A stretch of 32,000 bases of DNA from Copranaerobaculum intestinale (GTDB lineage: Bacteria > Bacillota_I > Bacilli_A > Erysipelotrichales > Erysipelotrichaceae): positions 30,001-62,000 of the forward strand of contig NZ_WUUQ01000007.1 in NCBI RefSeq assembly GCF_009831105.1, given 5' to 3'. The notes beneath the pieces were generated by a model. That model saw only the letters and a list, made by a program, of their open reading frames with translations, made no database searches and had not been told where the DNA came from. The position numbers and the translations under genes are program-made. Positions 1-25,553 of this stretch are shown piece by piece. How positions within the stretch are numbered: position 1 is the stretch's first letter; each line of letters begins with the position of its first letter.

Positions 1-527
1 TGCCGGCGCTTGAGAAAGCAAATGCGGCAAAAAGCGAAGCAATTCAAGCTCAGAGCAATTTGACTTCTTTGAAAATGAATCAAAGCGGTCTGGAGGATTT
101 GCAGGTGCAGTCCGATAATTTGATCGTGGAACTGAACGGTTTGATTTCAAAGTATGCTGTTCCTAAAGCCAATGAAGAAATCGACAAACAGCTGACGACG
201 CTGGCACAGAAATATTATCTGCTCCCAGCCGACTTGGAGATTTCGCAGCGTACACGAGTTGCGATTGTTTCATTGGATGAACGATTGAAGCTGAAAGAAG
301 AAAAAAAGGAGCTGCCGGCAACAAAAGATGGGAAGCCGAAAGGAACTCAATGTGATGTTGTTTATGTGACGATGAAAGTTTATGGTTCGCAAAGCAGCGC
401 TGCCGCATTGGCACAGGAAGTATCTACGTATACGACCATGCGGTTGAACAGTATGAGCGTGGATAATATTGAAAATACAATTACCTTTAAATTCGCAATG
501 TATTTGATTCCTACTGAGGATGCGTAA
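1..527 (+). CDS. Type IV pilus assembly protein, PilO-like (3' part; the ORF is open to the left edge of the window)
   Basis: The frame of the listed 60..527 ORF has no stop back to nt 3 (PALEKANAAKSEAIQAQSNL...), so the TTG at 60 is not the true start. It has a coiled-coil-like N-part followed by a mixed alpha/beta C-part. It sits directly upstream of the pilin genes, with its stop TAA abutting the next ATG at 528. The PilO assignment rests on position and architecture only. Confidence 0.4.
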   Translation, partial: PALEKANAAKSEAIQAQSNLTSLKMNQSGLEDLQVQSDNLIVELNGLISKYAVPKANEEIDKQLTTLAQKYYLLPADLEISQRTRVAIVSLDERLKLKEEKKELPATKDGKPKGTQCDVVYVTMKVYGSQSSAAALAQEVSTYTTMRLNSMSVDNIENTITFKFAMYLIPTEDA

Positions 528-998
528 ATGAAGCAGAATCAGAAAGGGTCAACGTTAGTATGGGCCATTACAATCATTATGGTCATGATGGTGCTGATTA
601 CCGCGATGCTGACGATTTCTCATCAGTATTATGCACGTACCCAGCAAAATTTTAAAATCAGACAGGCGAAGGTAACTGCCCAGGCGGCAGGAGATTCGTT
701 ATCTGAACTGATTCATTCCAACCGAAGCGGAATGATGCTGACCCTAGTTCCGGAAAAATATGATGGAAGTGCAAATGCGGTCATCCATGTAGAAAAGCTG
801 AAGCTGGGTGATAAAATGGGGACTGCTCAGGCTACGATCACGCGCACCAAGGAAGATCGGCTGACAATCAAAATCAAAGCAGAATATGCGGAGATAGAGG
901 CAGAATTAACTGTAACGATGCAGCTGAAGGATTCCGATAAGGGTGGCCAGGCTTGGGTTCGTGTAGATTACAATAACGGATCGGAGGCAAACTCATGA
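528..998 (+). CDS. Putative minor pilin / pseudopilin-like protein (PilX/ComGG-type N-terminus)
   Basis: The N-terminus MKQNQKG|STLVWAITIIMVMMVLITAML has Gly followed by a roughly 20-aa hydrophobic helix but no Glu at +5, as in ComGG/PilX-type proteins. The gene is translationally coupled on both sides (TAAATG at 525-530, ATGA at 995-998). Confidence 0.45.
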   Translation: MKQNQKGSTLVWAITIIMVMMVLITAMLTISHQYYARTQQNFKIRQAKVTAQAAGDSLSELIHSNRSGMMLTLVPEKYDGSANAVIHVEKLKLGDKMGTAQATITRTKEDRLTIKIKAEYAEIEAELTVTMQLKDSDKGGQAWVRVDYNNGSEANS

Positions 999-1885
999 GA
1001 CGATTGGATAAGCGAGGAATGACGATACTGGAGATCATTGTAACGATCATGGTGTTAGCGATCGCATTAACCATTCTTACCTCCGGTATTTTTGCGGCAA
1101 ATAATTTGATGAAAGAGGGACGTCACGCTCAGCAGGCTCTGGATAATCAAACATCAGCCTTGAATGGTACCATTGCGAATACTACCAAATTGGATAAAGA
1201 AAAGCAGTCCATGTCTTTTATGGTAAATGGTTCAACCTATCGCTTCAGCGGAACTGCATTGACTGGACGAGACACGCTCTATGATGATATCCATCTGCAG
1301 GGCTTTACCTTGAAGGAATCATTGGATTATTCTGTGGAATATCAAGCGTATTTATACATGAAGGGAATGCCTGATGTATTCCGTGACCTATTAAGAATGG
1401 GTTCTGAAGAAAAACAACAGGTTATCAATGTGTTCCAAAGCTTGGGAAGCACGGTTACTTCCTTGTATTTAAACAATGATGAATTTATCATGTACATGTT
1501 CCATTATTATTACGGCAGGAACTGGCCGGATTTCAATAAAGAGCTGCAGAAACAGCTTCCTGAATCGCTTCAAAATAAGGCTTATGTAATCCGTACTTTT
1601 ATGAGCTCACCGATCAATGATTCCAGTACGATCATCGTATATGCGACGGAATATACAAGTGCAATCAAAGGCAGTTGGGGAACGTCACTGATTTATGATT
1701 ACGGCGATGGAGAAGATCCGAATACGGCTGCTGGCTGGTACTATATGCATAATACAGGTGCAACATGTCTGGGCAGAAAAGGAAGCTGTATGCTGACCGA
1801 CTTTAATAATAATGCGCATACATGGAGCGAGCTTCAAAGAGAATTAAGAAATACCAATGTATGGACGCCGCTTGGAGAATCTTGA
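995..1885 (+). CDS. Large type IV pilin-like protein (prepilin-type N-terminal cleavage/methylation domain) with an uncharacterised C-terminal module
   Basis: MRRLDKRG|MTILEIIVTIMVLAIALTILTSG is a canonical class III signal (Gly-1, Glu+5, hydrophobic alpha1-N). At 296 aa it is about twice the size of an ordinary pilin. Confidence 0.75.
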   Translation: MRRLDKRGMTILEIIVTIMVLAIALTILTSGIFAANNLMKEGRHAQQALDNQTSALNGTIANTTKLDKEKQSMSFMVNGSTYRFSGTALTGRDTLYDDIHLQGFTLKESLDYSVEYQAYLYMKGMPDVFRDLLRMGSEEKQQVINVFQSLGSTVTSLYLNNDEFIMYMFHYYYGRNWPDFNKELQKQLPESLQNKAYVIRTFMSSPINDSSTIIVYATEYTSAIKGSWGTSLIYDYGDGEDPNTAAGWYYMHNTGATCLGRKGSCMLTDFNNNAHTWSELQRELRNTNVWTPLGES

Positions 1886-1898
1886 AAGGAGCATCATC

Positions 1899-2900
1899 AT
1901 GAAATATCTTCGCAATCATAAGGGCATGACATTGATCGAAATCATAATTACCCTTTTCATTGCGTCGATCATCCTGGTTATGTCCAGCTCGATTCTATTG
2001 TCCTCCATGGGCTTTTTCGATCAGCATGCGATCAGTGATTATGATAAATCAACATTAGACAGTGCGTTCAGCCAAGTGAGCGATCAATTGGAATATGCTT
2101 CTGTCATTACGATTTCCGCTACTCCTTTATCAGATAAATCCTATGAAAATTGGTCATATTATCGTATTAAAAACGGTCGTCTATATTATCGTGCAACAGC
2201 TGATAGTGATGAACGTGATTTATATACTGATGCGTTTTATCATAAGCGGCAGATGATGATGCAGGTTCAGATGAAGGACAAGGATAAACTGTATTTGTAT
2301 ATGGGTCTGAAAGAGGACGATCGGATTGTCTATGATCGGCAGAATACTTTATCACTGTCAGTTGTTACCGTTCGCATTGAAAACAATGAATCTGAAGGAA
2401 TAACGGCGCCGGATAAAAAAGTACATACAGATGTATATGTGTATTTTCAGCGTCAGCATGAAGAAGAATCCGGAAATATCCCGGAGGATGGTGTTCCGGG
2501 TACGGTAGCGGATGAAAAGTACTGTCTTGAAAATAATCAAGATGCCTATAAGGGTGATTTTAAAATTCCAGCTGATTATGATAAGGGTGATTTTGTTACG
2601 TATAATGGGGTTCTTTATCGGGCTCAGAAAAACATCAATGCAAACAATCCCGCTTTTACTCCGGATGTTATGAATACCGGATGGAAGCGGATTGACGAAA
2701 ATTGGAATCAATCTAGTGAATATCAAAAGGGTGATATTATTATATTTGGGGCGGATGTGCACGGAAACCATGTATATTATCAAAGCTTGACAAATCATAA
2801 TGTGGCATGGCAGCCCGATATGACGATCGGCCACTCATGGGTGAAGCTGGATCCAAGTGAGGTTCCCAAGGAGCATGCATGTCGGGTAACATGGGATTAG
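1899..2900 (+). CDS. Modular type IV pilin with two C-terminal CBM5/12-like carbohydrate-binding modules
   Basis: The start was refined to the ATG at 1899, with an AAAGGAG RBS at 1886-1892; the listed ORF starts at 1857, inside the previous gene. The N-terminus is MKYLRNHKG|MTLIEIIITLFIASIIL. Nt 2544-2693 and 2700-2849 encode two roughly 50-aa repeats (Y.KGDFVTYNGVLYRAQ...NPAFTPDV...GWKRI and Y.KGDIII...HVYYQSL..HNVAWQPDM...SWVKL) that fit the CBM5/12 pattern. Confidence 0.7.
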   Translation: MKYLRNHKGMTLIEIIITLFIASIILVMSSSILLSSMGFFDQHAISDYDKSTLDSAFSQVSDQLEYASVITISATPLSDKSYENWSYYRIKNGRLYYRATADSDERDLYTDAFYHKRQMMMQVQMKDKDKLYLYMGLKEDDRIVYDRQNTLSLSVVTVRIENNESEGITAPDKKVHTDVYVYFQRQHEEESGNIPEDGVPGTVADEKYCLENNQDAYKGDFKIPADYDKGDFVTYNGVLYRAQKNINANNPAFTPDVMNTGWKRIDENWNQSSEYQKGDIIIFGADVHGNHVYYQSLTNHNVAWQPDMTIGHSWVKLDPSEVPKEHACRVTWD

Positions 2901-2922: not shown

Positions 2923-4596
2923 ATGAGAAACATACCAATTGGAGAGGTACTGAAGGAATACGGATATATCAGTGAGGAACAGCTCCAGCAGGCGCTGATC
3001 CTGCAGAAGCAGGATCGTTCAAAGCGGTTAGGAACGATCATGATTGAAAAGGGCTTTATCACAGAGAAGCAGATGCTGTCTGCATTAGCTGAGCGTCTGA
3101 ATCAGCCGCTGATCGACTTGTCTACTTATCAGGTAGACAGTGAGGCGGTGGAACTGGTTCCTCAGCAGATTGCGCAAAAGTACTCGTTGATTGCAATTAA
3201 GAAAGAGGCGGGCAGTCTCATTGTTGCGACCAGTGATCCTTTAAACTTCTATGCAATCGAAGATGTGAGACAGATTGTCGGTATGCCTTTAATTGTCAAT
3301 TTGGCGCTGCAAAAGGATGTTTATCATGCAATCGGCTACTATTATGCCGAATTTGAAGCAAAAAAAGCCGCAACTGAAGCAAATAAGAGTGTCATTGATG
3401 ACGAAATGTCTTTGACTTCTATATTCAATGCGGAAGAGGATGAAACCCCGGTTGTTAAGGTTTTGAATTCGCTGCTGGTACGCGGGTATAATACGAATGC
3501 CAGTGATATACATATTGAACCGACAAAATCAAAGACAATGGTTCGGATGCGAATTGACGGAACGATGGTTGATTATGTGCAGTTGGACCGTTCTTTGCAC
3601 AACTCTTTAATTGCCCGCACCAAAATTTTGGCTAATCTGGATATTGCGGAGAAACGTGCACCGCAGGACGGTCACTTTGTTTTAAAAATAGAAAATTATG
3701 AAATGAATCTAAGAGTGTCGCTGATTCCTACGATTTACGGAGAAAAGGCGGTTCTTCGATACTTAAATACCAACACACCTATTTCAAATGCCAGGTATTT
3801 TGGCATGAGTGAAAAGCATTATGAAGAACTGGTGGATATGCTGCGAGCACCGCATGGTATTATTTATATAACCGGTCCGACCGGCAGCGGGAAAACGACA
3901 ACTTTATATATGGCCTTGGAAATGCTGGCACAGCGGGCCGTGAATATTTCAACGATTGAGGATCCGGTAGAGCGCAATATTGACCGCATCAATCAGATGC
4001 AGGTAAATCCGTTGGCTGGACTGACCTTTGAATCAGGGCTGCGGGCCCTGCTGCGGCAGGATCCGGATATTATCATGGTCGGTGAAACCCGTGATGCGCA
4101 GACTGCAGAGATTTCCGTACGTGCAGCGATCACCGGGCACTTGGTTCTATCAACCCTGCATACCAATGATGCCGCTTCAGTCATCGTACGTTTGCAGGAT
4201 ATGGGAGTGGAACCTTATCTGATCGCCAATTCTTTGAATGGGGTTGTAGCACAGCGGCTGATGCGTCAGGTTTGTCCGCACTGCCGTGAAGCGGTGGAAG
4301 CCGATGCACTTACTCAGCAACGGCTGGGACGTCCGGTAAAACAGCTTTATCAGGCAAAGGGATGTCATCTGTGCAATTTCACCGGCTATCATAACCGAAT
4401 CGCCATTCATGAAATTATTCATATTGATGCGGAAATTCGGCGTATGATCGTTGAACAAAGACCGCTGGATGATATCAAAAAGTACTTGATCGAAAGCGGA
4501 CAAAGTGAAACGTTAAAGGACAGTGCAGCGGAAATGGTGGCCAGCGGCATCACGACGATGGAAGAATTTGATCGTATTACGTATTTCACAGACTGA
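2923..4596 (+). CDS. pilB: Type IV pilus assembly (extension) ATPase PilB, GspE family, with an MshEN/T2SSE_N-type N-terminal domain
   Basis: Walker A GPTGSGKTT, Walker B/Asp box DPDIIMVGETRD, His box GHLVLSTLHTND, and a tetracysteine CPHC...CHLC zinc motif. The N-terminus carries two RLGxx..G.I....L...L..Q-like repeats. Confidence 0.9.
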   Translation: MRNIPIGEVLKEYGYISEEQLQQALILQKQDRSKRLGTIMIEKGFITEKQMLSALAERLNQPLIDLSTYQVDSEAVELVPQQIAQKYSLIAIKKEAGSLIVATSDPLNFYAIEDVRQIVGMPLIVNLALQKDVYHAIGYYYAEFEAKKAATEANKSVIDDEMSLTSIFNAEEDETPVVKVLNSLLVRGYNTNASDIHIEPTKSKTMVRMRIDGTMVDYVQLDRSLHNSLIARTKILANLDIAEKRAPQDGHFVLKIENYEMNLRVSLIPTIYGEKAVLRYLNTNTPISNARYFGMSEKHYEELVDMLRAPHGIIYITGPTGSGKTTTLYMALEMLAQRAVNISTIEDPVERNIDRINQMQVNPLAGLTFESGLRALLRQDPDIIMVGETRDAQTAEISVRAAITGHLVLSTLHTNDAASVIVRLQDMGVEPYLIANSLNGVVAQRLMRQVCPHCREAVEADALTQQRLGRPVKQLYQAKGCHLCNFTGYHNRIAIHEIIHIDAEIRRMIVEQRPLDDIKKYLIESGQSETLKDSAAEMVASGITTMEEFDRITYFTD

Positions 4597-4608: not shown

Positions 4609-5658
4609 ATGAAAGATTTAGAAGGACTGCTTCAATATGCACGAATGACGAATTGCTCAGATCTGCATATCAGCGAAAATCATAATCCGGTGTTTCGGCG
4701 CAACGGACGTTTAGAATTTGAAACGGAATCATATGAGAAAAATGATAATCGAACCATGATTTTGAGAATGATGAACGAAAATCAAAAAGCGGGCTTGAAA
4801 GCAGGCGATGATCAGGATTTTGTTTATATTGATAAAGAAAATAACCGCTATCGTGTTAATGTCTATAATCAGCAGAATCAGTATGCCGCAGCTATTCGTG
4901 TCATTTATGAGGAAATTGCTTCTTTGGATCGTTTAGGTTTGCCTAATGTTTTAAAGACGCTCTGTGACCAGCCACGCGGTCTCGTGTTGTTGAGCGGACC
5001 AACCGGCAGCGGGAAATCGACGACATTAGCTGCGATGATCGACTATATCAACGAGCATTTTGACCGGCATATCATCACCATTGAGGATCCGGTAGAATAT
5101 GTTTATCATCAGAAATTATCGATGATCCATCAGCGCGAAGTCGGCAGTGATGTGAAATCCTTCAGCACTGCTCTGCGCTCGGCAATGCGGGAGGATCCGG
5201 ATGTTATTTTGGTGGGAGAGATGCGTGATTATGAAACAATTCAGGCTGCTATTACCGCGGCAGAAACCGGTCATTTGGTCTTTTCTACCTTGCATACCGT
5301 CGGTGCAGCGAAAACGATCGATCGTATCATTGATGTCTTTCCAGAGCATAAACAATCGCAGATTCGAACCCAGCTGTCTACGGTATTGCGGGCAGCGATC
5401 ACGCAGCAGCTGATACCTACCATAGATGGAATGGGGCGGGTTGCAGCATGTGAAATTCTGCTTGGCACCGACGCTGTCAGCAGTCTGATCCGCGACAATA
5501 AAGCCCACCAGCTTGGTTCTATCATGCAGACGAATGCAAAGGAAGGTATGATCACTTTGAATGCTGCATTGGCACAACTGGTAAGAGCAGGAAAAATCAG
5601 CGCCGTATCGGCAGCACAATTCAGCAGCGATCCAATTGAGCTGCGTCAATATCTTTAA
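4609..5658 (+). CDS. pilT: Twitching-motility (retraction) ATPase PilT
   Basis: SDLHI...NPVFRRNGRL N-domain, Walker A GPTGSGKST, DPDVILVGEMRD, GHLVFSTLHT, and the PilT-specific AxxxLIR(D/E)xK motif (AVSSLIRDNKAHQL). It is about 350 aa with no N-terminal extension. RBS GAGGTGA. Confidence 0.9.
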   Translation: MKDLEGLLQYARMTNCSDLHISENHNPVFRRNGRLEFETESYEKNDNRTMILRMMNENQKAGLKAGDDQDFVYIDKENNRYRVNVYNQQNQYAAAIRVIYEEIASLDRLGLPNVLKTLCDQPRGLVLLSGPTGSGKSTTLAAMIDYINEHFDRHIITIEDPVEYVYHQKLSMIHQREVGSDVKSFSTALRSAMREDPDVILVGEMRDYETIQAAITAAETGHLVFSTLHTVGAAKTIDRIIDVFPEHKQSQIRTQLSTVLRAAITQQLIPTIDGMGRVAACEILLGTDAVSSLIRDNKAHQLGSIMQTNAKEGMITLNAALAQLVRAGKISAVSAAQFSSDPIELRQYL

Positions 5659-5669
5659 GGAGATATCTT

Positions 5670-6179
5670 ATGCAAATACGAAAAATAGATGATGGTCAAA
5701 TACGTATGCAAATCAGTGAAAAAATTTTGCGGCAGCTGCCTGATTATTTTGGTATTGAGGAAAGTACGCTGGACTATATCCATCAAAGTGAATATCAAAC
5801 AATGTTTGCCGCTTATGAGGATGAACAACCCATTGGCTTTTTGACCCTGCAGCCGCATGGTGATGCATGCATGGAAGTATACGCGATGGGGGTCTTAGAA
5901 AGAGGCCATCGCAAGGGAATTGGCCGCAGCTTGATGGAATATGCTTTCGCTTATGCCAAACAGCAGGGATGTACGTATGTCAGTGTGAAAACACTTGGCA
6001 GCAGTCATCCGGATGAGGGCTACCGTAAAACCCGTCAATTCTATTATGCGATGGGTTTCCAACCGCTTGAAGAGTCCACTCAGCTATGGGGAATGGACTG
6101 TCCATGCCTATTCATGGTAAAGCATTTGTATATGGATGCTCCCATTAAAAATTATGATTTGGAAAAACCGCAGGGATAA
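5670..6179 (+). CDS. GNAT family N-acetyltransferase
   Basis: Acetyl-CoA-binding motif (HRKGIGRSLMEYAFAYAKQQG) followed by the YYAMGF beta-strand. RBS AAGGAG lies 8 nt upstream. Confidence 0.8.
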   Translation: MQIRKIDDGQIRMQISEKILRQLPDYFGIEESTLDYIHQSEYQTMFAAYEDEQPIGFLTLQPHGDACMEVYAMGVLERGHRKGIGRSLMEYAFAYAKQQGCTYVSVKTLGSSHPDEGYRKTRQFYYAMGFQPLEESTQLWGMDCPCLFMVKHLYMDAPIKNYDLEKPQG

Positions 6180-6941: not shown

Positions 6942-7036
6942 ATGAATTCCTCCTGTTACGTATCTGTTATTATTATACGCAATCGGTTATAAAATGTATT
7001 GTTTGATGCTTTCAGCAAGGAACTGTTATTTTCATG

Positions 7037-7066
7037 TTCCATATATTCCGGAAAGTATGATACAAT
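7037..7066 (+). promoter_or_regulatory. Putative sigma-A promoter with extended -10 (TGaTACAAT) for the ROK kinase gene
   Basis: TG at 7058-7059 and TACAAT at 7061-7066, with a weak -35 TTCCAT 18 nt upstream. It lies inside the listed ORF 6999..7976, which supports the downstream ATG at 7083 as the real start. Confidence 0.4.
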
Positions 7067-7082
7067 GGCGCAGGTGATAAAG

Positions 7083-7976
7083 ATGAAATTTGCGGCAGTC
7101 GATATTGGCGGAACCTTTATTAAATATGCATTGCTGGATGAACAGATGCAGATATTGGATCAAAAACAGGTGGTTACCATGGCCTTGATGGATGCGGAGG
7201 CCTTTTACGATTATTTATGTGAAGAAATGTTAATAGATGGGGCTGATCTGATTGGGATATGCGCTCCCGGTATATTTGATGATCAAGGGATCATGGTGAC
7301 AGCGAGCAGCGGTAATGCTTCGATTATGTATCAGACAGATGTAGTGCAGGAAGTGAAAAATCGTACTGGACTTACGACCTATGTTATCAATGACGCTCGA
7401 GCGGCGGGCTTATGTGAGTGGAAAATGGGAAACTGCCGGGGTTTTGATCGAAGTGCTTGTTATCTGATCGGAACCGGCATCGGCGGCTGTCTGATGGATG
7501 AGCACGGACTGATCCGTGGTTCTCATCACTTTAGCGGTGAATTCAGTTATATGCCGGTGTGGGGCAGGGACGGTAAAGTGGAGCAGCTGGGCAACCATGC
7601 CAGTATGAGCTCTTTGATACGTGCCTATCATGCTCTGCATCCGTATGAGACCATTGACGGCGAAACCATATGTGAACGATATTTGAAGCATGAGCCGGAT
7701 GCGGTCACCTGTGTCAGTCATTGGCTGCAGGCGATTACCATGCAGTTGATTACGATAACTGCGGTCTATGATCCCGGTGTTATCTGTATTGGCGGCGGTA
7801 TTTCCAGAGCTGATTGGTTTTTAAAGGAGCTTGCTGCCCGTTACCAAGCCGGATGCGCTTCCTTTATCTCACCGATGCTGAGCTTCCATACCGAAATTCG
7901 ATCCTGTGCCTTTTATAATGAAGCGAATTTGATCGGTGCGGCAATTCATGCCCGGCGTGAGTTTTATCATATGTGA
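7083..7976 (+). CDS. ROK family sugar kinase (non-zinc subtype)
   Basis: MKFAAVDIGGTFIKYALLD phosphate-1 motif, INDARAA, and GTGIGGC...GEFSY. The canonical ROK His/CxCGxxGC zinc site is absent (GEFSYMPVWGRDGKVEQLGN). Confidence 0.8.
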   Translation: MKFAAVDIGGTFIKYALLDEQMQILDQKQVVTMALMDAEAFYDYLCEEMLIDGADLIGICAPGIFDDQGIMVTASSGNASIMYQTDVVQEVKNRTGLTTYVINDARAAGLCEWKMGNCRGFDRSACYLIGTGIGGCLMDEHGLIRGSHHFSGEFSYMPVWGRDGKVEQLGNHASMSSLIRAYHALHPYETIDGETICERYLKHEPDAVTCVSHWLQAITMQLITITAVYDPGVICIGGGISRADWFLKELAARYQAGCASFISPMLSFHTEIRSCAFYNEANLIGAAIHARREFYHM

Positions 7977-8015: not shown

Positions 8016-8891
8016 ATGATAAAAATGATAGCATGTGATATGGATGGAACCCTGCTGAATTCGGAAAACCAGCTTTCAGAGGCAAACCGCATGGCTGTTT
8101 TAGCAGCCCAGCGAAGCGGTATCCGCTTCGTCGTAGCGACCGGACGGGGCCGCCAAAATGTCATTGATCTGCTTCAGAAAAAAGATATACAGTGTGGGAG
8201 CATTCTTTTGAACGGTGCTGTTTATATGGATGAACAACAGCAGCAGCTGTTCAGTCTCCCGCTTTCTAAACCCGCTGCAAATAAAGCTTATCAGGTTTTT
8301 CATAAGTATGAATTATTCAGCCGAATTTTCTGTGAGGATGGGTTTTATTCAGAAGCAAAAAAAGTCAGGCTGATGCATGACATGCTGGCTAGGCTGGGTC
8401 TTGATCATGAATTCAGTGAGGAAGAATTATATACGATGGCAGAAGAGGATGACTTCATCGGTATTACCAAGCCGTTGATTGCCTGGGAAGAAACGCTCAA
8501 CCAGCAGCATATCTACAAACTGGAAGCATTCCGCTACGGCAGTCCGAATTTAGAGATGGTATGCAAGGAGCTGGCGCAGATCGACGATATTGCGGTAACC
8601 TCTTCGTTTGCGAATAATATTGAAGTAACCAATATTCTGGCTCAGAAAGGGCAGATGCTGGAAAAGGTTGCCGCCCACTATGGCTTGATGCACAGTGAAG
8701 TGATGGTGATCGGCGATTCAATGAATGATTTATCGATGTTTCGAAGTTTTTCCAATTCAGTAGCGGTGGCGAATGCTGACATCGAAGTGCGCAAGGCCGC
8801 GTCACAGATAACTGATTCAAACGATCAGATGGGAGTTGCGAAAATCCTATTTCGTACGATTGAAAGCAACCGCCGTCTTCAGGAATTTTAA
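8016..8891 (+). CDS. Cof-type HAD-IIB family hydrolase (sugar-phosphate phosphatase type)
   Basis: Motif I IACDMDGTLL, motif II VVATGR, motif IV GDSMNDLSM, and a cap domain of Cof size. RBS AGAGGGAG. Confidence 0.85.
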   Translation: MIKMIACDMDGTLLNSENQLSEANRMAVLAAQRSGIRFVVATGRGRQNVIDLLQKKDIQCGSILLNGAVYMDEQQQQLFSLPLSKPAANKAYQVFHKYELFSRIFCEDGFYSEAKKVRLMHDMLARLGLDHEFSEEELYTMAEEDDFIGITKPLIAWEETLNQQHIYKLEAFRYGSPNLEMVCKELAQIDDIAVTSSFANNIEVTNILAQKGQMLEKVAAHYGLMHSEVMVIGDSMNDLSMFRSFSNSVAVANADIEVRKAASQITDSNDQMGVAKILFRTIESNRRLQEF

Positions 8892-8902: not shown

Positions 8903-9925
8903 ATGATACCGGTATTATCCTTGCCGACCTGGGACAAGCTGATGAAAGCCTTCCGAGGCTTCAGACGCAGCCGTCCATGGTCGCTGATTGAAGCACAGCA
9001 TATATTTGGGTTTCGTGATCCCCAAAGCGGGCGCCGATATTTTTGCAGTGTTTTGGGAAGCGCCGGCATGGTGACCGGTTTTTATGTGTTTCCGCAGGAG
9101 GAAGCATTGTTTCAATACTTCGATCAAACCCTATCACCAACTGTCGATGTCTCGCTCAGACAGAATATGATTGCCTTTACAATGGGTTCTATGGATGAGC
9201 TGTTCGATGAGGAATATGATATATATGAATCACAAGGGTATCATTTTGCGAAAGGGAAGTGCTTCCTGTTTCATGTTTATGAAATTGGATATGCTCCCTT
9301 TGTGCTGAATGAAGAACAGGCGGAAATACTGTTATGCGGATATGAAGTGCTTAAGCAGATTATTAGCTTGTTGAAGGAAGATACGAATTTTCAGAATGTA
9401 CTGTTTCAGGACGGAAATGATATGAAGATTCCTTTTTTTACCAAAGATCGGAAAGCGTGGAATTACCAGGTGGAAACGCTGGACAGCTATCTGCGGAAAC
9501 AACGCATCTATTCCATGGATGCCATACAGTTTGATAAGCGGGATAAACCGGTTCACGGCACTTGGGAAATCGGAACGCTGTATATGCCGGCAGCGATTCC
9601 AAGTGTTCATCCTAATCGTTACTTTTATCCTAAGGTGCTGATTGTAGCCGATCGTGAAGATAATCGCATCATTGCGATTCTGACCAAAGAGGAACGGCAT
9701 GACAGTGAGGTTTTCATACCGTCGTTTTTTGCTTTACTTCAAAATTATGAATATCTTCCGGCATGTATTATGACGCGGGGTCAAGAAGCTGCTGAGCTAT
9801 TCAAGGAGCTTGATACCGTGCTCGATGTGAAGGTGTTGGAAAATTCAGCGCCGGTTAGTATCATTGATCAGATATGGGCAGGATTCTTGGATTTTGCCCA
9901 TAAAAATCGTTCTATTCAAAGCTGA
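8903..9925 (+). CDS. Conserved hypothetical cytoplasmic protein (340 aa), function unknown
   Basis: A long clean ORF that starts 12 nt after the HAD stop, with a GGGAGG RBS at 8892-8897. It has no transmembrane segments and no catalytic motif I recognise. The N-terminal pattern PW..I....IFGF.DP.SG...YCSVLG..G...G..VF resembles uncharacterised DUF families, from memory only. Confidence 0.6.
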   Translation: MIPVLSLPTWDKLMKAFRGFRRSRPWSLIEAQHIFGFRDPQSGRRYFCSVLGSAGMVTGFYVFPQEEALFQYFDQTLSPTVDVSLRQNMIAFTMGSMDELFDEEYDIYESQGYHFAKGKCFLFHVYEIGYAPFVLNEEQAEILLCGYEVLKQIISLLKEDTNFQNVLFQDGNDMKIPFFTKDRKAWNYQVETLDSYLRKQRIYSMDAIQFDKRDKPVHGTWEIGTLYMPAAIPSVHPNRYFYPKVLIVADREDNRIIAILTKEERHDSEVFIPSFFALLQNYEYLPACIMTRGQEAAELFKELDTVLDVKVLENSAPVSIIDQIWAGFLDFAHKNRSIQS

Positions 9926-10320: not shown

Positions 10321-11868
10321 ATGAAGAAAAAGCTTATGGTTATTGCGGTGGCACTCATGTGCATGCTGCCAATTACCCAGGTGCATGCCAAGGATACCGA
10401 AAAAAAGACATTTACCGTGGGAATGGAGTGCAACTATGCACCGTTCAACTGGTCACAGGTCGATCCGAGTGATTCAGCTGTGCAGCTGCAGGACGGCGGG
10501 TATTGTGACGGATACGATGTAGCAATTGCTCAGAAAATTGCCGATAAATTGAATCGTGAATTAATTATTAAAAAAATGAGCTGGGATGGTTTGGAACCTG
10601 CGCTGCAGGGAAATATCATCGACGCGGTGATTGCCGGTATGACCGATACGGCTGAGCGGCGGGAGCGGGTAGCATTTACGAAGCCCTATTATAAATCCGA
10701 TATGGTTATGATCGTCCGTAAGGACAGCCCATTAAGCAAGGCGCATACCTTGAAAGACTTTACCGGGAAGACGGTTATGGGACAGCTGAATACGCTGTAT
10801 GATACCGTGATCGATCAGGTGCCGGAGGTGAAGCACGCTAAGGCACTTGAGGATTATCCGGCTATGGTCATGCAGCTGAATAAGGGATTGGTTGATGCAA
10901 TCACTGCGGAACTGCCAGTAGCGGCTGGGATTGTTTCAACGAATAAGGAGCTGACGTATACTGAGTTTGAGAAAGGCAAGGGATTCAATGTTGATCTGAC
11001 TGATACTTCAGTATCGATAGCGGTAAACAAGGATAATGAGAAGTTAAAAAATGATATTCAGAAAGTATTGAATGGTATTTCGGAGAAGGAACGCAAAAAA
11101 ATGATGGATGCCGCAATCACAAGGATTCCCAGCGGCAATTTAGAATTAAGTGATAATTTGCTGGTATCCGCCGGTCAGATATTGCAGAAATACGGACCTT
11201 TGTTTATCAATGGTATCAAATCAACATTGATCCTTGCCTTTAGCGGTACGCTGCTGGGTCTGTTGATCGGCTTACAGGTCGGTGCCATCAAGGCGATCAA
11301 AGTAGATAAGCGTGACCCGCTGCTGCTGAAAATCGGAAAACGGATTTTAAGCTTTATCTTGTCGGTATATATTGAAGTATTCCGTGGAACGCCGATGATG
11401 GTACAGGGTGCCTTTATCTTCTATCTGGTACGTGATTGGGTGGCATGGAGTCCGTTTACTGCCGGTATTGTCGTTATTACGATTAACACCGGTGCATATA
11501 TGGCCGAGATTGTACGAAGCGGTATTCAGTCAGTCGATATAGGGCAGACTGAAGCGGCACGCTCACTGGGCATGACGAATCTGCAAACGATGCGGCATAT
11601 TATCATTCCGCAGGCGATCCGCAATTCCTTCCCATCGATTTGTAATGAATTTGTGGTCAATATCAAGGATTCTTCAGTATTGAATGTGATTGCTGTAACC
11701 GAATTATTCTATCAGGCGAAGAGTGTTGCCGGTTCTCTATATGCCTTTGTACCAACTTACTTCGTCGTAGCGTTGATTTATCTCTGTCTGACATTCCCGA
11801 CCACCCGTATTCTGGGGCTGATCGAGAAGCGGATGAATAAGACTTCCGGCTACAAGGAGGGTCAATAA
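10321..11868 (+). CDS. Amino-acid ABC transporter, fused substrate-binding protein and permease (polar amino acid PAAT family); probably a lysine importer
   Basis: An N-terminal signal peptide ([23 protein letters not shown]) and an SBP_bac_3-like domain, followed by a His/Glu/Gln/Arg-type permease with the EAA loop ([22 protein letters not shown]). It lies directly downstream of the L-box. Confidence 0.85.
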
Positions 11869-11869
11869 T

Positions 11870-12604
11870 ATGAGTATTCTGAGTGTTCGCCATCTGCAAA
11901 AGCATTTTGGTGATTTGAAAGTACTGAATGATATTGATTTCGAAGTGCAGGAAGGGGAAACCGTCTGCATCATCGGTTCCAGCGGCAGCGGTAAGTCGAC
12001 GCTGCTTCGCTGCCTGAATTTATTAGAGATGCCAGACGGCGGAGAAATTTGCTATCACGATAAAAATATTATGGAAGGACATATCGATCTGAATATGCAT
12101 CGTGCAAAAATCGGAATGGTATTCCAGTCTTTCTATCTCTTTAATAATATGAATGTGCTGGAAAATTGCGTTTTGGGGCAGCGTAAGGTATTGAAGCGGG
12201 ATCGCAAAGCATGTGAAGCAAAAGCGCTGGAGCTTCTGACTAAAGTCGGAATGGAAAAGTTTGTGAAAGCAATGCCGTCAACCTTATCCGGAGGGCAAAA
12301 GCAGCGTGTGGCAATCGCTCGTGCACTGTGCATGGATCCGGAAGTGCTGCTGTTTGATGAGCCTACCTCAGCTTTGGACCCGGAAATGGTCAATGATGTG
12401 CTGAATGTTATGAAGGGACTGAGCGGCAGCGGCTTAACAATGGTTGTAGTAACCCATGAAATGAGTTTTGCCCACGATGTCGCTGATCGAGTTATTTTCA
12501 TGGATAAAGGCGTGATCGAAGAAGAGGGAACTCCTGAACAATTGTTTGACAATCCGCAAAAAGAACGTACTAAAGCGTTCCTAAGTCATGAAAAAATCAA
12601 TTAA
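11870..12604 (+). CDS. Amino-acid ABC transporter ATP-binding protein (GlnQ/HisP type)
   Basis: Walker [10 protein letters not shown], signature [15 protein letters not shown], Walker [12 protein letters not shown], and H-loop VVTHEM. It starts 2 nt after the permease stop. Confidence 0.9.
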
Positions 12605-12617
12605 GAAATAAGAAAAA

Positions 12618-12649
12618 GAACTGCGCTATATGGTTAGCGCGGTTCTTTT
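12618..12649 (+). terminator. Intrinsic terminator of the amino-acid ABC operon
   Basis: AGAACTGCGCTA / TAGCGCGGTTCT stem with one G-U pair, followed by TTTT. Confidence 0.6.
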
Positions 12650-12828
12650 AGGTAAAGAATATTTTTTATCTTCCTGCAGTTCATGATTGTGATGCTTTGC
12701 ATCTATGGTAAAATAAAAGAAATGAATTGAAAATCAACCGATATATGATCGGATATCCATCTATTACAGGTCAATTTCAATGGGATGCATTTCAAAAGAC
12801 TATTCATATGATAGCGGAGGATAAAACA

Positions 12829-25121: not shown

Positions 25122-25553
25122 ATGATTTTATATATCAAGGAGCTGGATGCAGAGCGATGCTTAATTGTTCTGGACAATCAGAATCGTTATGAATATTATG
25201 AGAATAAAATGGAAGTGCTGCTGGAACGGTTGTGTTTATCCTATGGATTTACGCTGCAGGGTGGAAAAAGAGCTGTCGCTGCGTATTTAAGAATTAAGCG
25301 AATGGTTCCTATCTGTTTAAGCGCTGAACAATCCTACATGTTATTTCCAATTATCGATCATGCTGCTCATCAGCGAATCTGGTTCAATTACGCTTGGATC
25401 GAGACACATATTCATGTTGATCACTGCTGTACCGTTCGGTTTCGAAATGGCGAAGAATTGCAGTGCTCGGTTTCTAAACGAGTGTTTCAAAAGCAGCTGG
25501 ACCGCTGTTATTTTTATTTGTATCTGCGTTATTGTTTGCTTAATCGGCGATAA
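25122..25553 (+). CDS. ComK-family competence transcription factor-like protein (short form, 143 aa)
   Basis: It aligns by eye with the B. subtilis ComK core: C..YG....G.K.......I....PI (RMVPICLS), LFP (MLFPIID), the W-containing strand (RIWFNYAWIE), V.F.NG (TVRFRNGEEL), and S...F..Q (SVSKRVFQKQ). Confidence 0.55.
   Translation: MILYIKELDAERCLIVLDNQNRYEYYENKMEVLLERLCLSYGFTLQGGKRAVAAYLRIKRMVPICLSAEQSYMLFPIIDHAAHQRIWFNYAWIETHIHVDHCCTVRFRNGEELQCSVSKRVFQKQLDRCYFYLYLRYCLLNRR

Follow-up and report, generated by a model that had tools for sequence, protein, structure and literature searches.

The gene on the forward strand at positions 1899 to 2900 of the window, the window being the whole 32,000-nucleotide stretch of Copranaerobaculum intestinale DNA that was analysed, encodes a modular minor pilin in which a type IV pilin domain is joined through a linker to a tandem CBM5/12-type module. 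The reading of this protein as a pilin fused to two CBM5/12-type modules, which a preliminary description of the same DNA had put forward, is supported by the present analysis, and the corresponding pilus probably bears its own sugar-polymer adhesin. The features on which this assignment is based are collected in Table 1.

Table 1 Features of the modular pilin gene and of its neighbours in the window (positions in nt; a slash marks the predicted cleavage site)
Feature	Positions	Strand	Description and basis
3' part of the 204-aa gene g204, at the PilO position	1..527	+	truncated at the window start; the TTG at 60 listed as a start codon is artefactual
Minor pilin g156	528..998	+	prepilin-like N-terminus without Glu5 (KG/STLVW), compare GspK/ComGG/PilX-type cap pilins
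Minor pilin g296	995..1885	+	prepilin signal RG/MTILE plus PilJ_C domain
Shine-Dalgarno AAAGGAG	1885..1891	+	read from the sequence; spacing of 7 nt to the ATG at 1899
Modular minor pilin (g333)	1899..2900	+	333 aa plus stop: prepilin signal, pilin domain, linker, tandem CBM5/12-type module
Leader peptide MKYLRNHKG	1899..1925	+	N_methyl and TIGR02532 matches
Pilin domain, aa 10-185	1926..2453	+	long alpha1 helix with Glu5, then beta-sheet head
Acidic Pro/Gly linker, about aa 186-201	2454..2498	+	HEEESGNIPEDGVPGT; predicted flexible
GTVADEKYC helix opening the module	2499..2543	+	contains Cys209; conserved; helix 203-212 in the model
Repeat 1, aa 216-265, CBM5/12-type	2544..2693	+	PF02839 alone above cut-off; aligns with CBM12-1
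Repeat 2, aa 268-317, divergent CBM5/12-type	2700..2849	+	insertion GADVHG; homology to repeat 1; superposition
C-terminal tail with Cys328 (...EHACRVTWD)	2850..2897	+	C328 at least 90% conserved
PilB-type assembly ATPase	2923..4596	+	T2SSE 414 bits, MshEN 58 bits
Putative PilT-type retraction ATPase	4609..5658	+	T2SSE 171 bits; 349 aa, without N-terminal MshEN

The open reading frame was recovered with a translation identical to that quoted previously. The mechanically derived frame opens at 1857, but the ATG at 1899 represents the better start and is preferred because of the AAAGGAG motif upstream, the resulting leader of 9 amino acids and the independent choice of this start in the gene calling of three related contigs. 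A start at 1857, on the other hand, has no Shine-Dalgarno sequence, would overlap the upstream gene and would extend the leader to 23 amino acids. An antisense frame (positions 2358-2834, minus strand, 158 aa) was dismissed as mechanical, since conserved homologues, domain matches and a confidently modelled fold belong to the plus-strand product, and a match to DUF3189 (E=0.004-0.027), which falls under the cut-off of that family, was regarded as noise. A protein with 98% identity from an Erysipelotrichaceae MAG (P0001) is annotated merely as a prepilin-type protein.

The N-terminus of the protein (MKYLRNHKG followed by MTLIEIIITLFIASIILVMSSS) comprises a short, basic leader with Gly as its last residue and a hydrophobic segment of approximately 20 residues with Glu5. 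The canonical prepilin signal KG/MTLIE with Glu5 that had been recognised earlier is borne out by profile matches to PF07963 N_methyl (27.2 bits against a cut-off of 21.2) and to TIGR02532 (23.0 bits against 16.3). For the remainder of the pilin domain an AF2 model predicts a lollipop fold, composed of helices at residues 12-36 and 39-65 followed by strands between residues 67 and 185, with a pLDDT of mostly 80-94 across residues 50-185, and residues K50, D54, Y66, W85, Y114, Y145 and N155 are conserved among 102 homologues. When 21 N-terminal domains were used as a profile against PDB sequences, the only matches concerned the alpha1N segment (for example of geopilin, MshA and PilE1). The acidic, Pro/Gly-containing linker that had been noted after the pilin part is present and coincides with the sole internal stretch of low confidence in the model (residues 188-196, pLDDT <50); its sequence and its length differ between homologues.

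Downstream of the linker, two repeats of about 50 amino acids are found precisely where they had been placed before, and a mutual BLASTP comparison aligned them with E=3e-5 and 29% identity. The proposal that both represent CBM5/12 modules stands in part by direct profile search. In an hmmscan against CBM_5_12 (PF02839, cut-off 26.2 bits) the full-length protein scored 28.2 bits and repeat 1 on its own 27.5 bits, whereas repeat 2 by itself stayed below the Pfam cut-off (13.4 bits, E=0.079) and is tentatively assigned to the same type because it is homologous to repeat 1 and superposes on CBM12-2. A phmmer search against PDB sequences gave significant matches only to Vibrio deacetylases, over their CBM12-1/CBM12-2 region (best E=1.8e-4), this being also the value at which repeat 1 aligns with CBM12-1, an alignment that is reproduced at the structural level. 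The tandem module is bracketed by a nearly invariant pair of cysteines, C209 and C328, which may form a disulfide. In the alignment of homologues no variation is seen at G201, T202 and D205, C209 is conserved to at least 90%, and in homologues with four repeats each tandem pair has a Cys bracket of its own.

The structural model of the C-terminal module (pLDDT 86.7, pTM 0.81) is in agreement with this assignment. A Foldseek search against the PDB, which had been suggested as a check, ranked the two tandem CBM12 domains of Vibrio chitin-oligosaccharide deacetylases first (E=3e-6), with superpositions covering both repeats over approximately 103 columns at a TM-score of 0.49-0.53 and an rmsd of 3.2-3.6 Å; the identity of the CBM12-1 and CBM12-2 domains in this pair is confirmed in the literature (PMC12506485). 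Single chitin-binding domains of chitinases (2rts, 4tx8, 2d49 and 1e15) also match with a probability of 0.8-0.99, and that of 4tx8 superposes with an rmsd of 1.5 Å over 47 columns. Of the expectation that the repeats fold as independent CBM-like modules, the CBM-like fold is retained, but the repeats do not appear to be independent, the model showing one compact tandem unit that is preceded by a helix and bracketed by cysteines.

The genomic context is that of a complete pilus operon, which comprises genes for a major pilin, PilD (A24), PilC (T2SSF), PilM, g235, g204, three minor pilins, PilB and PilT, with pilB and pilT closing the operon. The three minor pilin genes (g156, g296 and g333) are contiguous, the modular pilin being the last of them. 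The full g204 gene is seen on a related contig (L001, 8015-8629), flanked by pilM/g235 and by the minor pilins, and is conserved on two others (L004 and L005); its position points to a possible PilO role, while size and position suggest the PilT role of the gene downstream of pilB. Domain searches with g156 returned weak matches only (ComGG, GspK, TadE-like), and g296 matched PF18223 PilJ_C with 31.7 bits (cut-off 26.7) and TIGR02532 with 19.5 bits (cut-off 16.3). A cluster of minor pilins that includes one Glu5-less subunit is a feature of the GspH-K / PilH-K type of tip complex, and such a cluster is found here. The position of the modular pilin directly upstream of pilB is shared by an Erysipelotrichaceae MAG and Ca. 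Stoquefichus massiliensis, a trio with a Glu5-less pilin also occurs in Sharpea porci, and in both Stoquefichus and Sharpea the Glu5-less pilins adjoin the CBM-carrying pilin.

An exhaustive profile search retrieved at least 102 related pilins (as clusters at 50% identity), each with 2-4 repeats. In these 102 homologues the repeat recurs 332 times, with the consensus aromatic-x5-Y-x2-G-D-[IVF]-V-x-[YF]-N-G-x-[YW]-[YW]...P...W. CBM_5_12 is independently matched by 55 of the 102 members (E<=0.01, best 7.8e-17) and its detection is missed in the other 47; homologues from cultured species score under the Pfam CBM_5_12 threshold. A profile scan of genome contigs was swamped by the generic pilin motif and gave at least six loci, and for ten diverse family members the names of cluster members carried a taxonomy no finer than 'Clostridiales', or otherwise read 'prepilin-type'. 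The earlier remark that no described pilin with CBM5/12 modules was known to its author holds insofar as no description of one was found in the literature searched, yet the architecture had been recorded once in a census of 2021, where Dataset S1 lists a single protein with IPR012902-IPR003610 (Raynaud et al. 2021, PMC8179133).

By joining a pilin to CBM5/12 modules, the protein adds another case to the known 'modular pilin' principle, for which the precedent invoked earlier in Streptococcus sanguinis is sound: PilB of this species carries a vWA module and PilC a concanavalin-A-like lectin module (PMC8179133; PMC9934059), both are modelled together with PilA in an adhesive tip complex, and PilC binds glycans (Shahin et al. 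2023, PMC9934059; PMC8179133). Common to these proteins and to the present one are a monoderm T4aP system, a pilin module with a class III signal peptide, a short linker, a C-terminal ligand-binding module and a gene located among those of minor pilins. In contrast, the graft here is a tandem CBM5/12 module, present in 2-4 copies across the family, rather than a vWA or lectin/glucanase fold, the present system is described from sequence and models, and no similarity to S. sanguinis PilB or PilC was detectable between the pilin domain sequences. The Vibrio deacetylases (PDB 3WX7, 4NY2, 8YFP; PMC12506485) provide the best match in both sequence and structure (20-25% identity, with superposing tandem pairs), but their CBM12 pair is joined to a CE4 enzyme instead of a pilin, and the pilin version has an additional N-terminal helix, the Cys bracket and the insertion in repeat 2. 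In Ruminococcus albus, R. flavefaciens and Fibrobacter, too, type IV pili have been implicated in attachment to cellulose (PMC3672088); these are likewise anaerobic gut bacteria with type IV pili or pilins and an insoluble polysaccharide as target, but the pilin implicated there is an ordinary one of about 14 kDa without a fused carbohydrate-binding module.

Considering this architecture and context, a mechanism of six steps is proposed, in which a modular minor type IV pilin displays a tandem CBM5/12 adhesin on a retractable pilus and which, as a whole, we regard as moderately probable. The leader would be cut after Gly9 by the PilD peptidase (A24 prepilin peptidase) of the same operon, after which the hydrophobic alpha1 helix and Glu5 would dock the subunit into a pilus made by PilB, PilC and PilM. 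The flexible acidic linker would hold out a compact unit of two CBM5/12-fold modules, apparently stapled by its N-terminal helix and the conserved Cys pair. The subunit would most likely be located at the tip of the pilus and form a complex there with the neighbouring minor pilins, namely the cap-like Glu5-less g156 and the PilJ_C-bearing g296. There the tandem module may serve as adhesin for an insoluble GlcNAc-type polysaccharide, and retraction driven by PilT would then draw the cell onto the substrate.

For this ligand, chitin is taken as the default candidate. In repeat 1, the residue aligned with the 'DWAP' Trp in CBM12-1 of the chitin-oligosaccharide deacetylases (COD) is F252, and W303 of repeat 2 sits in the same motif (AWQP). 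Across the family the position of this chitin-contact Trp is poorly conserved, and the ligand may differ or vary because an aromatic residue is kept there in just 94 of 267 repeats. No chitinase or chitin-utilisation genes were found within the 32-kb window.

The repeat also occurs in phages. Giant tail-fibre proteins of PHROG 9851 (phrog_9851) carry it with E-values down to 1e-81, in 6-23 copies that are often paired and that, as is proposed for the pilin, lie on an extended filament reaching for a surface; these fibres, however, are virion components without a prepilin signal, and the GTVADE..C helix is mostly absent from them. The modular pilin itself matches phrog_9851 with E=2e-6, only over residues 217-288, and Foldseek matched its module to phage fibre proteins (Agrobacterium phage 7-7-1, Milano; E=1.6e-4) as well as to 48 viral proteins in BFVD. 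An assignment of the modular pilin as a PHROG 9851 tail fibre was rejected in view of its prepilin N-terminus and pilus operon context, the module alone being common to both. A specifically phage-derived module is not supported, the per-domain scores against phage repeats (14-34 bits) being similar to those against the enzyme CBM12 pair (26-27 bits). The abundance of CBM5/12-type modules in phage tail fibres, where the targets are unlikely to be chitin, is an observation that counts against the chitin reading.

These similarities bear on the alternative that the module, with architecture and display unchanged, binds a bacterial surface glycan (the peptidoglycan backbone, a wall polysaccharide or a capsule) instead of chitin, and so works as the repeats of phage receptor-binding fibres presumably do, in cell-to-cell contact such as aggregation, the formation of biofilms or contact with specific neighbours. 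The multicopy repeats of the fibres, the phrog_9851 match, the structural matches to phage and viral proteins, the equal per-domain similarity to phage and enzyme repeats, the poorly kept chitin-contact aromatic and the lack of chitin genes in the window all argue for it; the phage repeats, however, may be structural shaft modules, the nearest solved structures are chitin-directed CBM12 domains and the aromatic-x-Pro motif is retained in both repeats of the modular pilin, and this alternative is held to be fairly unlikely. The narrower statement that the module is a phage-fibre-like receptor-binding unit on a retractable pilus, and not a chitin binder, appears unlikely.

Distinctly unlikely is a mainly structural or assembly role, in which the CBM-like repeats would be no external adhesin but a spacer, a stabiliser of the priming complex or a contact to the cell's own peptidoglycan during passage through the wall. 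Such a role would suit the variable repeat number (2, 3 or 4), the strong sequence divergence that leaves 47 of 102 members below CBM_5_12 detection, the compact, stapled appearance of the unit with its conserved Cys pair, and the chitin-like GlcNAc backbone of peptidoglycan, but it fits poorly with a flexible acidic linker and a C-terminal position, features commonly seen where modular pilins display an effector module, with the conservation of core CBM signature residues over 332 repeats, and with the operon's PilT, a sign that the pilus is retractable and would need an adhesive tip for pulling. A DNA-uptake (competence) pilus, on which the modular pilin would tether cells where DNA is captured or would join in the capture, is very improbable: PilM, PilT and PilB with MshEN mark the machinery as T4aP and not as a comG operon, and we know of no DNA binding by CBM5/12 modules. 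A ComK homologue (PF06338, E=1e-19) does lie in the window, but some 20 kb downstream and not adjacent to the pilus operon, and the minor pilins do give ComGF-, ComGD- and ComGG-type matches, but weak ones that remain far under the cut-offs. Chitin colonisation is linked to competence pili in Vibrio cholerae, which would accord with such a role.

To our knowledge, the type IV pili of Gram-positive gut commensals have barely been studied and their binding targets are mostly unknown. A minor pilin with CBM5/12-type modules of its own is a concrete candidate adhesin in such bacteria, for which fungal or dietary-arthropod chitin, or chitin-like bacterial glycans, are candidate ligands. The concept of the modular pilin is left unchanged by this finding, such fusions having already been anticipated by it. 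The protein belongs to a family of recurrent occurrence and conserved synteny, with at least 100 sequence clusters, that is typical of Erysipelotrichaceae-like gut bacteria and has cultured carriers in Ca. Stoquefichus massiliensis and Sharpea porci, and the functional half of its members is masked by public annotation. The module is, in addition, common to pili and phage tail fibres. If the phage-fibre-like reading were true, the pili of gut Erysipelotrichales would seize specific surface glycans of other bacteria, in aggregation, antagonism or DNA acquisition, and their variable arrays of 2-4 repeats would evolve in the manner of phage host-range determinants.

The open reading frame of the modular pilin with carbohydrate-binding modules (CBM-pilin; window 1899-2900, + strand) comprises 333 codons and a stop, its translation being exactly that quoted in the preliminary description. 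A mechanical ORF list places the start at 1857; however, ATG 1899 is preferred since it is located 7 nt downstream of a Shine-Dalgarno sequence (AAAGGAG, 1885-1891), specifies a 9-residue leader as is typical for prepilins, and is also the start called on three independent contigs from metagenomes. The N-terminus, MKYLRNHKG/MTLIEIIITLFIASIILV, represents a class III signal peptide with Glu5 present, and the prepilin signal that had been claimed was recovered with both Pfam N_methyl (27.2 bits versus a cut-off of 21.2) and TIGR02532 (23.0 bits versus 16.3). In the full-length AlphaFold2 model (mean pLDDT 80.4), the acidic Pro/Gly linker (aa 186-201), which had likewise been proposed, coincides with the sole internal low-confidence stretch.

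The two C-terminal repeats are located where the preliminary description placed them (see the table), and are mutually related beyond chance (BLASTP E=3e-5, 29% identity). Their proposed CBM5/12 character was checked with Pfam CBM_5_12 (PF02839; curated cut-off 26.2 bits), for which the whole protein scores 28.2 bits; the proposal holds for repeat 1 by itself (27.5 bits), but not for repeat 2 by itself (only 13.4 bits, E=0.079). When residues 201-333 are compared by sequence with all PDB chains, the significant matches are Vibrio chitin-oligosaccharide deacetylases only (3WX7, E=1.8e-4; 4NZ1/4NY2, E=2.8e-4), the alignment falling on deacetylase residues ~301-378; in these enzymes, a CE4 catalytic domain precedes two CBM12 domains, CBM12-1 and CBM12-2 (PMC12506485). 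A model of residues 197-333 alone (pLDDT 86.7, pTM 0.81) was in turn compared with the PDB using Foldseek, the top matches being fifteen chains of Vibrio deacetylases (E=3e-6 to 5e-5; query-normalised TM 0.49-0.53), fourteen of which share 20-25% identity with the module over 101-104 columns (rmsd 3.2-3.6 Å), and both repeats superpose as one unit on the solved tandem CBM12 pair. A second group, with E-values between 1.6e-4 and 8e-4, contains tail-fibre/receptor-binding proteins from the Agrobacterium phages Milano and 7-7-1, and a third is formed by single chitin-binding domains, i.e. 2RTS (chitinase 'chitin binding domain 1'), 4TX8 (Chromobacterium GH18, rmsd 1.5 Å over 47 columns), Streptomyces griseus ChiC (2D49/1WVU), Moritella Chi60 and Serratia ChiB. 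Based on the PF02839, PDB sequence and Foldseek matches, the predicted CBM5/12 fold of the C-terminal half is considered robust.

In addition to what the preliminary description noted, the module starts with a conserved helix (GTVADEKYC, with G201, T202 and D205 invariant) and is flanked by the nearly invariant C209 and C328, while four-repeat homologues possess this helix and Cys bracket ('GTVADE..C ... C') separately for every tandem pair. The helix, the bracket and the high pTM suggest that the tandem module is a compact, possibly disulfide-stapled unit rather than a pair of independent beads. The bracket suggests a C209-C328 disulfide that would staple this extracellular Firmicute protein.

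Coordinates of the pilin genes and of features of the tandem module (L005 and L006, compared loci)
Feature	Position	Strand	Remarks
g156 minor pilin	window 528-998	+	156 aa; mature N-terminus without Glu5 (KG/STLVW)
g296 pilin	window 995-1885	+	PilJ_C domain, 31.7 bits (cut-off 26.7)
Repeat 1	window 2544-2693	+	~50 aa
Repeat 2	window 2700-2849	+	~50 aa
Cys209	window 2523-2525	+	N-terminal side of module bracket
Cys328	window 2880-2882	+	C-terminal side of module bracket
E5-less pilin, Ca. Stoquefichus massiliensis	L005 8534-8983		adjoins CBM-pilin
CBM-pilin homologue, Ca. Stoquefichus massiliensis	L005 9974-11518		514 aa; cultured species
E5-less pilin, Sharpea porci	L006 3760-4230		adjoins CBM-pilin
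CBM-pilin homologue, Sharpea porci	L006 1712-3763		683 aa; cultured species

CBM-pilin is preceded by two minor pilin genes, g156, whose lack of Glu5 is the hallmark of GspK/ComGG/PilX-type cap subunits, and g296, and is followed by two ATPase genes, one of PilB type (414 bits for T2SSE, with an MshEN match as well) and one of PilT type. A 98% identical homologue (P0001) from an Erysipelotrichaceae MAG is encoded on contigs as long as 203 kb which span the whole pilus operon, flanked 5' by groES-groEL, in the order major pilin (142 aa), PilD, PilC, PilM, g235, g204, g156, g296, CBM-pilin, PilB, PilT. The flanking genes, pilD to g204 on one side and CBM-pilin-pilB-pilT on the other, keep their order in one further Erysipelotrichaceae MAG as well as in Ca. 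Stoquefichus massiliensis AP9; in the latter, the g156 and g296 positions are filled by a 149-aa E5-less and a 327-aa pilin ORF. In Sharpea porci, an E5-less pilin and a large pilin again form a trio with the CBM-repeat pilin, but in a changed order. In locus L002 of a metagenomic strain (11025-12698, Logan SRR29449333) pilB was called in two pieces (476 aa and 50 aa, versus 557 aa), suggesting a frameshift or premature stop in this strain, or an assembly error.

Downstream of pilT, on the same strand, are genes for a GNAT acetyltransferase (directly adjacent, window 5670-6179), a ROK-family sugar kinase- or regulator-type protein (6999-7976) and a Cof-type HAD phosphatase (8016-8891), for which a tie to amino-sugar metabolism is speculative. 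Further plus-strand genes encode a 340-aa protein with DUF7309 (E=6.5e-26) and DUF6930 (E=6.7e-14) (8903-9925), a 515-aa protein in which a family-3 solute-binding domain is fused to an ABC permease domain (10321-11868) with its ATPase encoded by the next gene (11870-12604), and, ~20 kb downstream of the operon, a homologue of ComK-family competence regulators (PF06338, E=1e-19; 25122-25553).

A word-indexed search retrieved only 10 relatives of CBM-pilin, and an exhaustive HMM search of the family profile against 1.84 billion cluster representatives yielded 4222 matches at E<=1e-3 (161 at E<=1e-30). When the 150 top-scoring of these matches are taken together with the close homologues from the word-indexed search, 106 proteins are pilin-sized and carry a prepilin motif. 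N_methyl was matched in all 102 pilin-type homologues scanned, and CBM_5_12 (E<=0.01) in 55 of them (best 7.8e-17). With a family-specific repeat HMM, 332 repeats were detected in these 102 proteins (four in 51, three in 26 and two in 25), the two-repeat protein of the window therefore being a short form; the consensus, aromatic-x5-Y-x2-G-D-[IVF]-V-x-[YF]-N-G-x-[YW]-[YW]...P...W, is the CBM5/12 signature. The homologues of the two cultured species each contain two strong and two weak repeats by this profile without reaching Pfam CBM_5_12 at E<=0.01, so that standard annotation misses the module in about half of the family, whose members are publicly named, if at all, just 'prepilin-type N-terminal cleavage/methylation domain-containing protein'.

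The strong matches to the family profile that remain range from 900 to 5600 aa, contain 6-23 repeat copies and lack a prepilin signal; all seven tested proved to be tail-fibre proteins of phages (phrog_9851, E=2e-28 to 1.6e-81), a PHROG family which CBM-pilin itself matches at E=2e-6. Giant repeat proteins include P0011 (4341 aa), P0083 (5585 aa), P0098, P0124 and ~35 others, and an N-terminus of the type 'LxLxxIQPTDxFxDxTFNxxIxDID' is common to many giant tail-fibre repeat proteins. The module furthermore matches 48 viral predicted structures at E<1e-3, many annotated as ChiA1-BD, chitin-binding type-3 or CBM5/12. Considering that its per-domain scores are 14-34 bits with phage repeats versus 26-27 bits with the Vibrio CBM12 pair, the module is no closer to the former, and a phage origin is therefore not claimed.

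The best-supported reading of CBM-pilin is that of a modular minor pilin. Its pilin domain would enter the filament, the linker would hold out the tandem unit for binding to an insoluble glycan, and PilT retraction would then draw the cell onto the substrate. A location at the tip together with its two neighbouring minor pilins is suggested by the conservation of the gene trio, by the lack of Glu5 in one partner and by the precedent of Streptococcus sanguinis, where the modular pilins PilB (vWA) and PilC (lectin) are modelled with PilA as a tip complex (PMC8179133, PMC9934059). Chitin is the putative ligand by default, given that chitin is described as the target of characterised CBM5/12 modules (PMC3267712) and that the nearest solved relatives are CBM12 domains of chitin systems. 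No chitinase or chitin-utilisation gene was found within the 32-kb window. F252 in repeat 1 and W303 in repeat 2 align with the 'DWAP' Trp of the deacetylases, which we take to be equivalent to the chitin-contacting Trp687 of Bacillus circulans ChiA1; however, just 94 of 267 family repeats have an aromatic residue at this site, a caveat on chitin as the ligand. The heavy use of CBM5/12-type modules in phage fibres makes other ligands plausible.

The category of modular pilins is already established, an InterPro census of 2021 having counted >1200 proteins in 264 architectures, carbohydrate-binding modules among them (PMC8179133). The earlier remark that no described pilin with CBM5/12 modules was known to its author stands in that our literature searches found no paper describing or testing one, but not in full, as Dataset S1 of the census lists the architecture (IPR012902-IPR003610) for a single protein (PMC8179133); CBM-pilin is therefore an uncharacterised member of an established category. 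Functional precedents are available from Ruminococcus and Fibrobacter, anaerobic gut bacteria in which pili mediate attachment to insoluble polysaccharide; the pilins involved are ordinary ones without a CBM (PMC3672088). The initial observation is thus confirmed, and its interpretation as a modular pilin with CBM5/12 modules is supported with the qualifications made. New in the current work are a large syntenic CBM-pilin family centred on Erysipelotrichaceae-like gut bacteria, a module that appears to be a stapled tandem unit in one or two copies per protein, and a repeat common to this family and phage tail fibres. For pilus specialists this is no surprise; it is a useful, testable lead.
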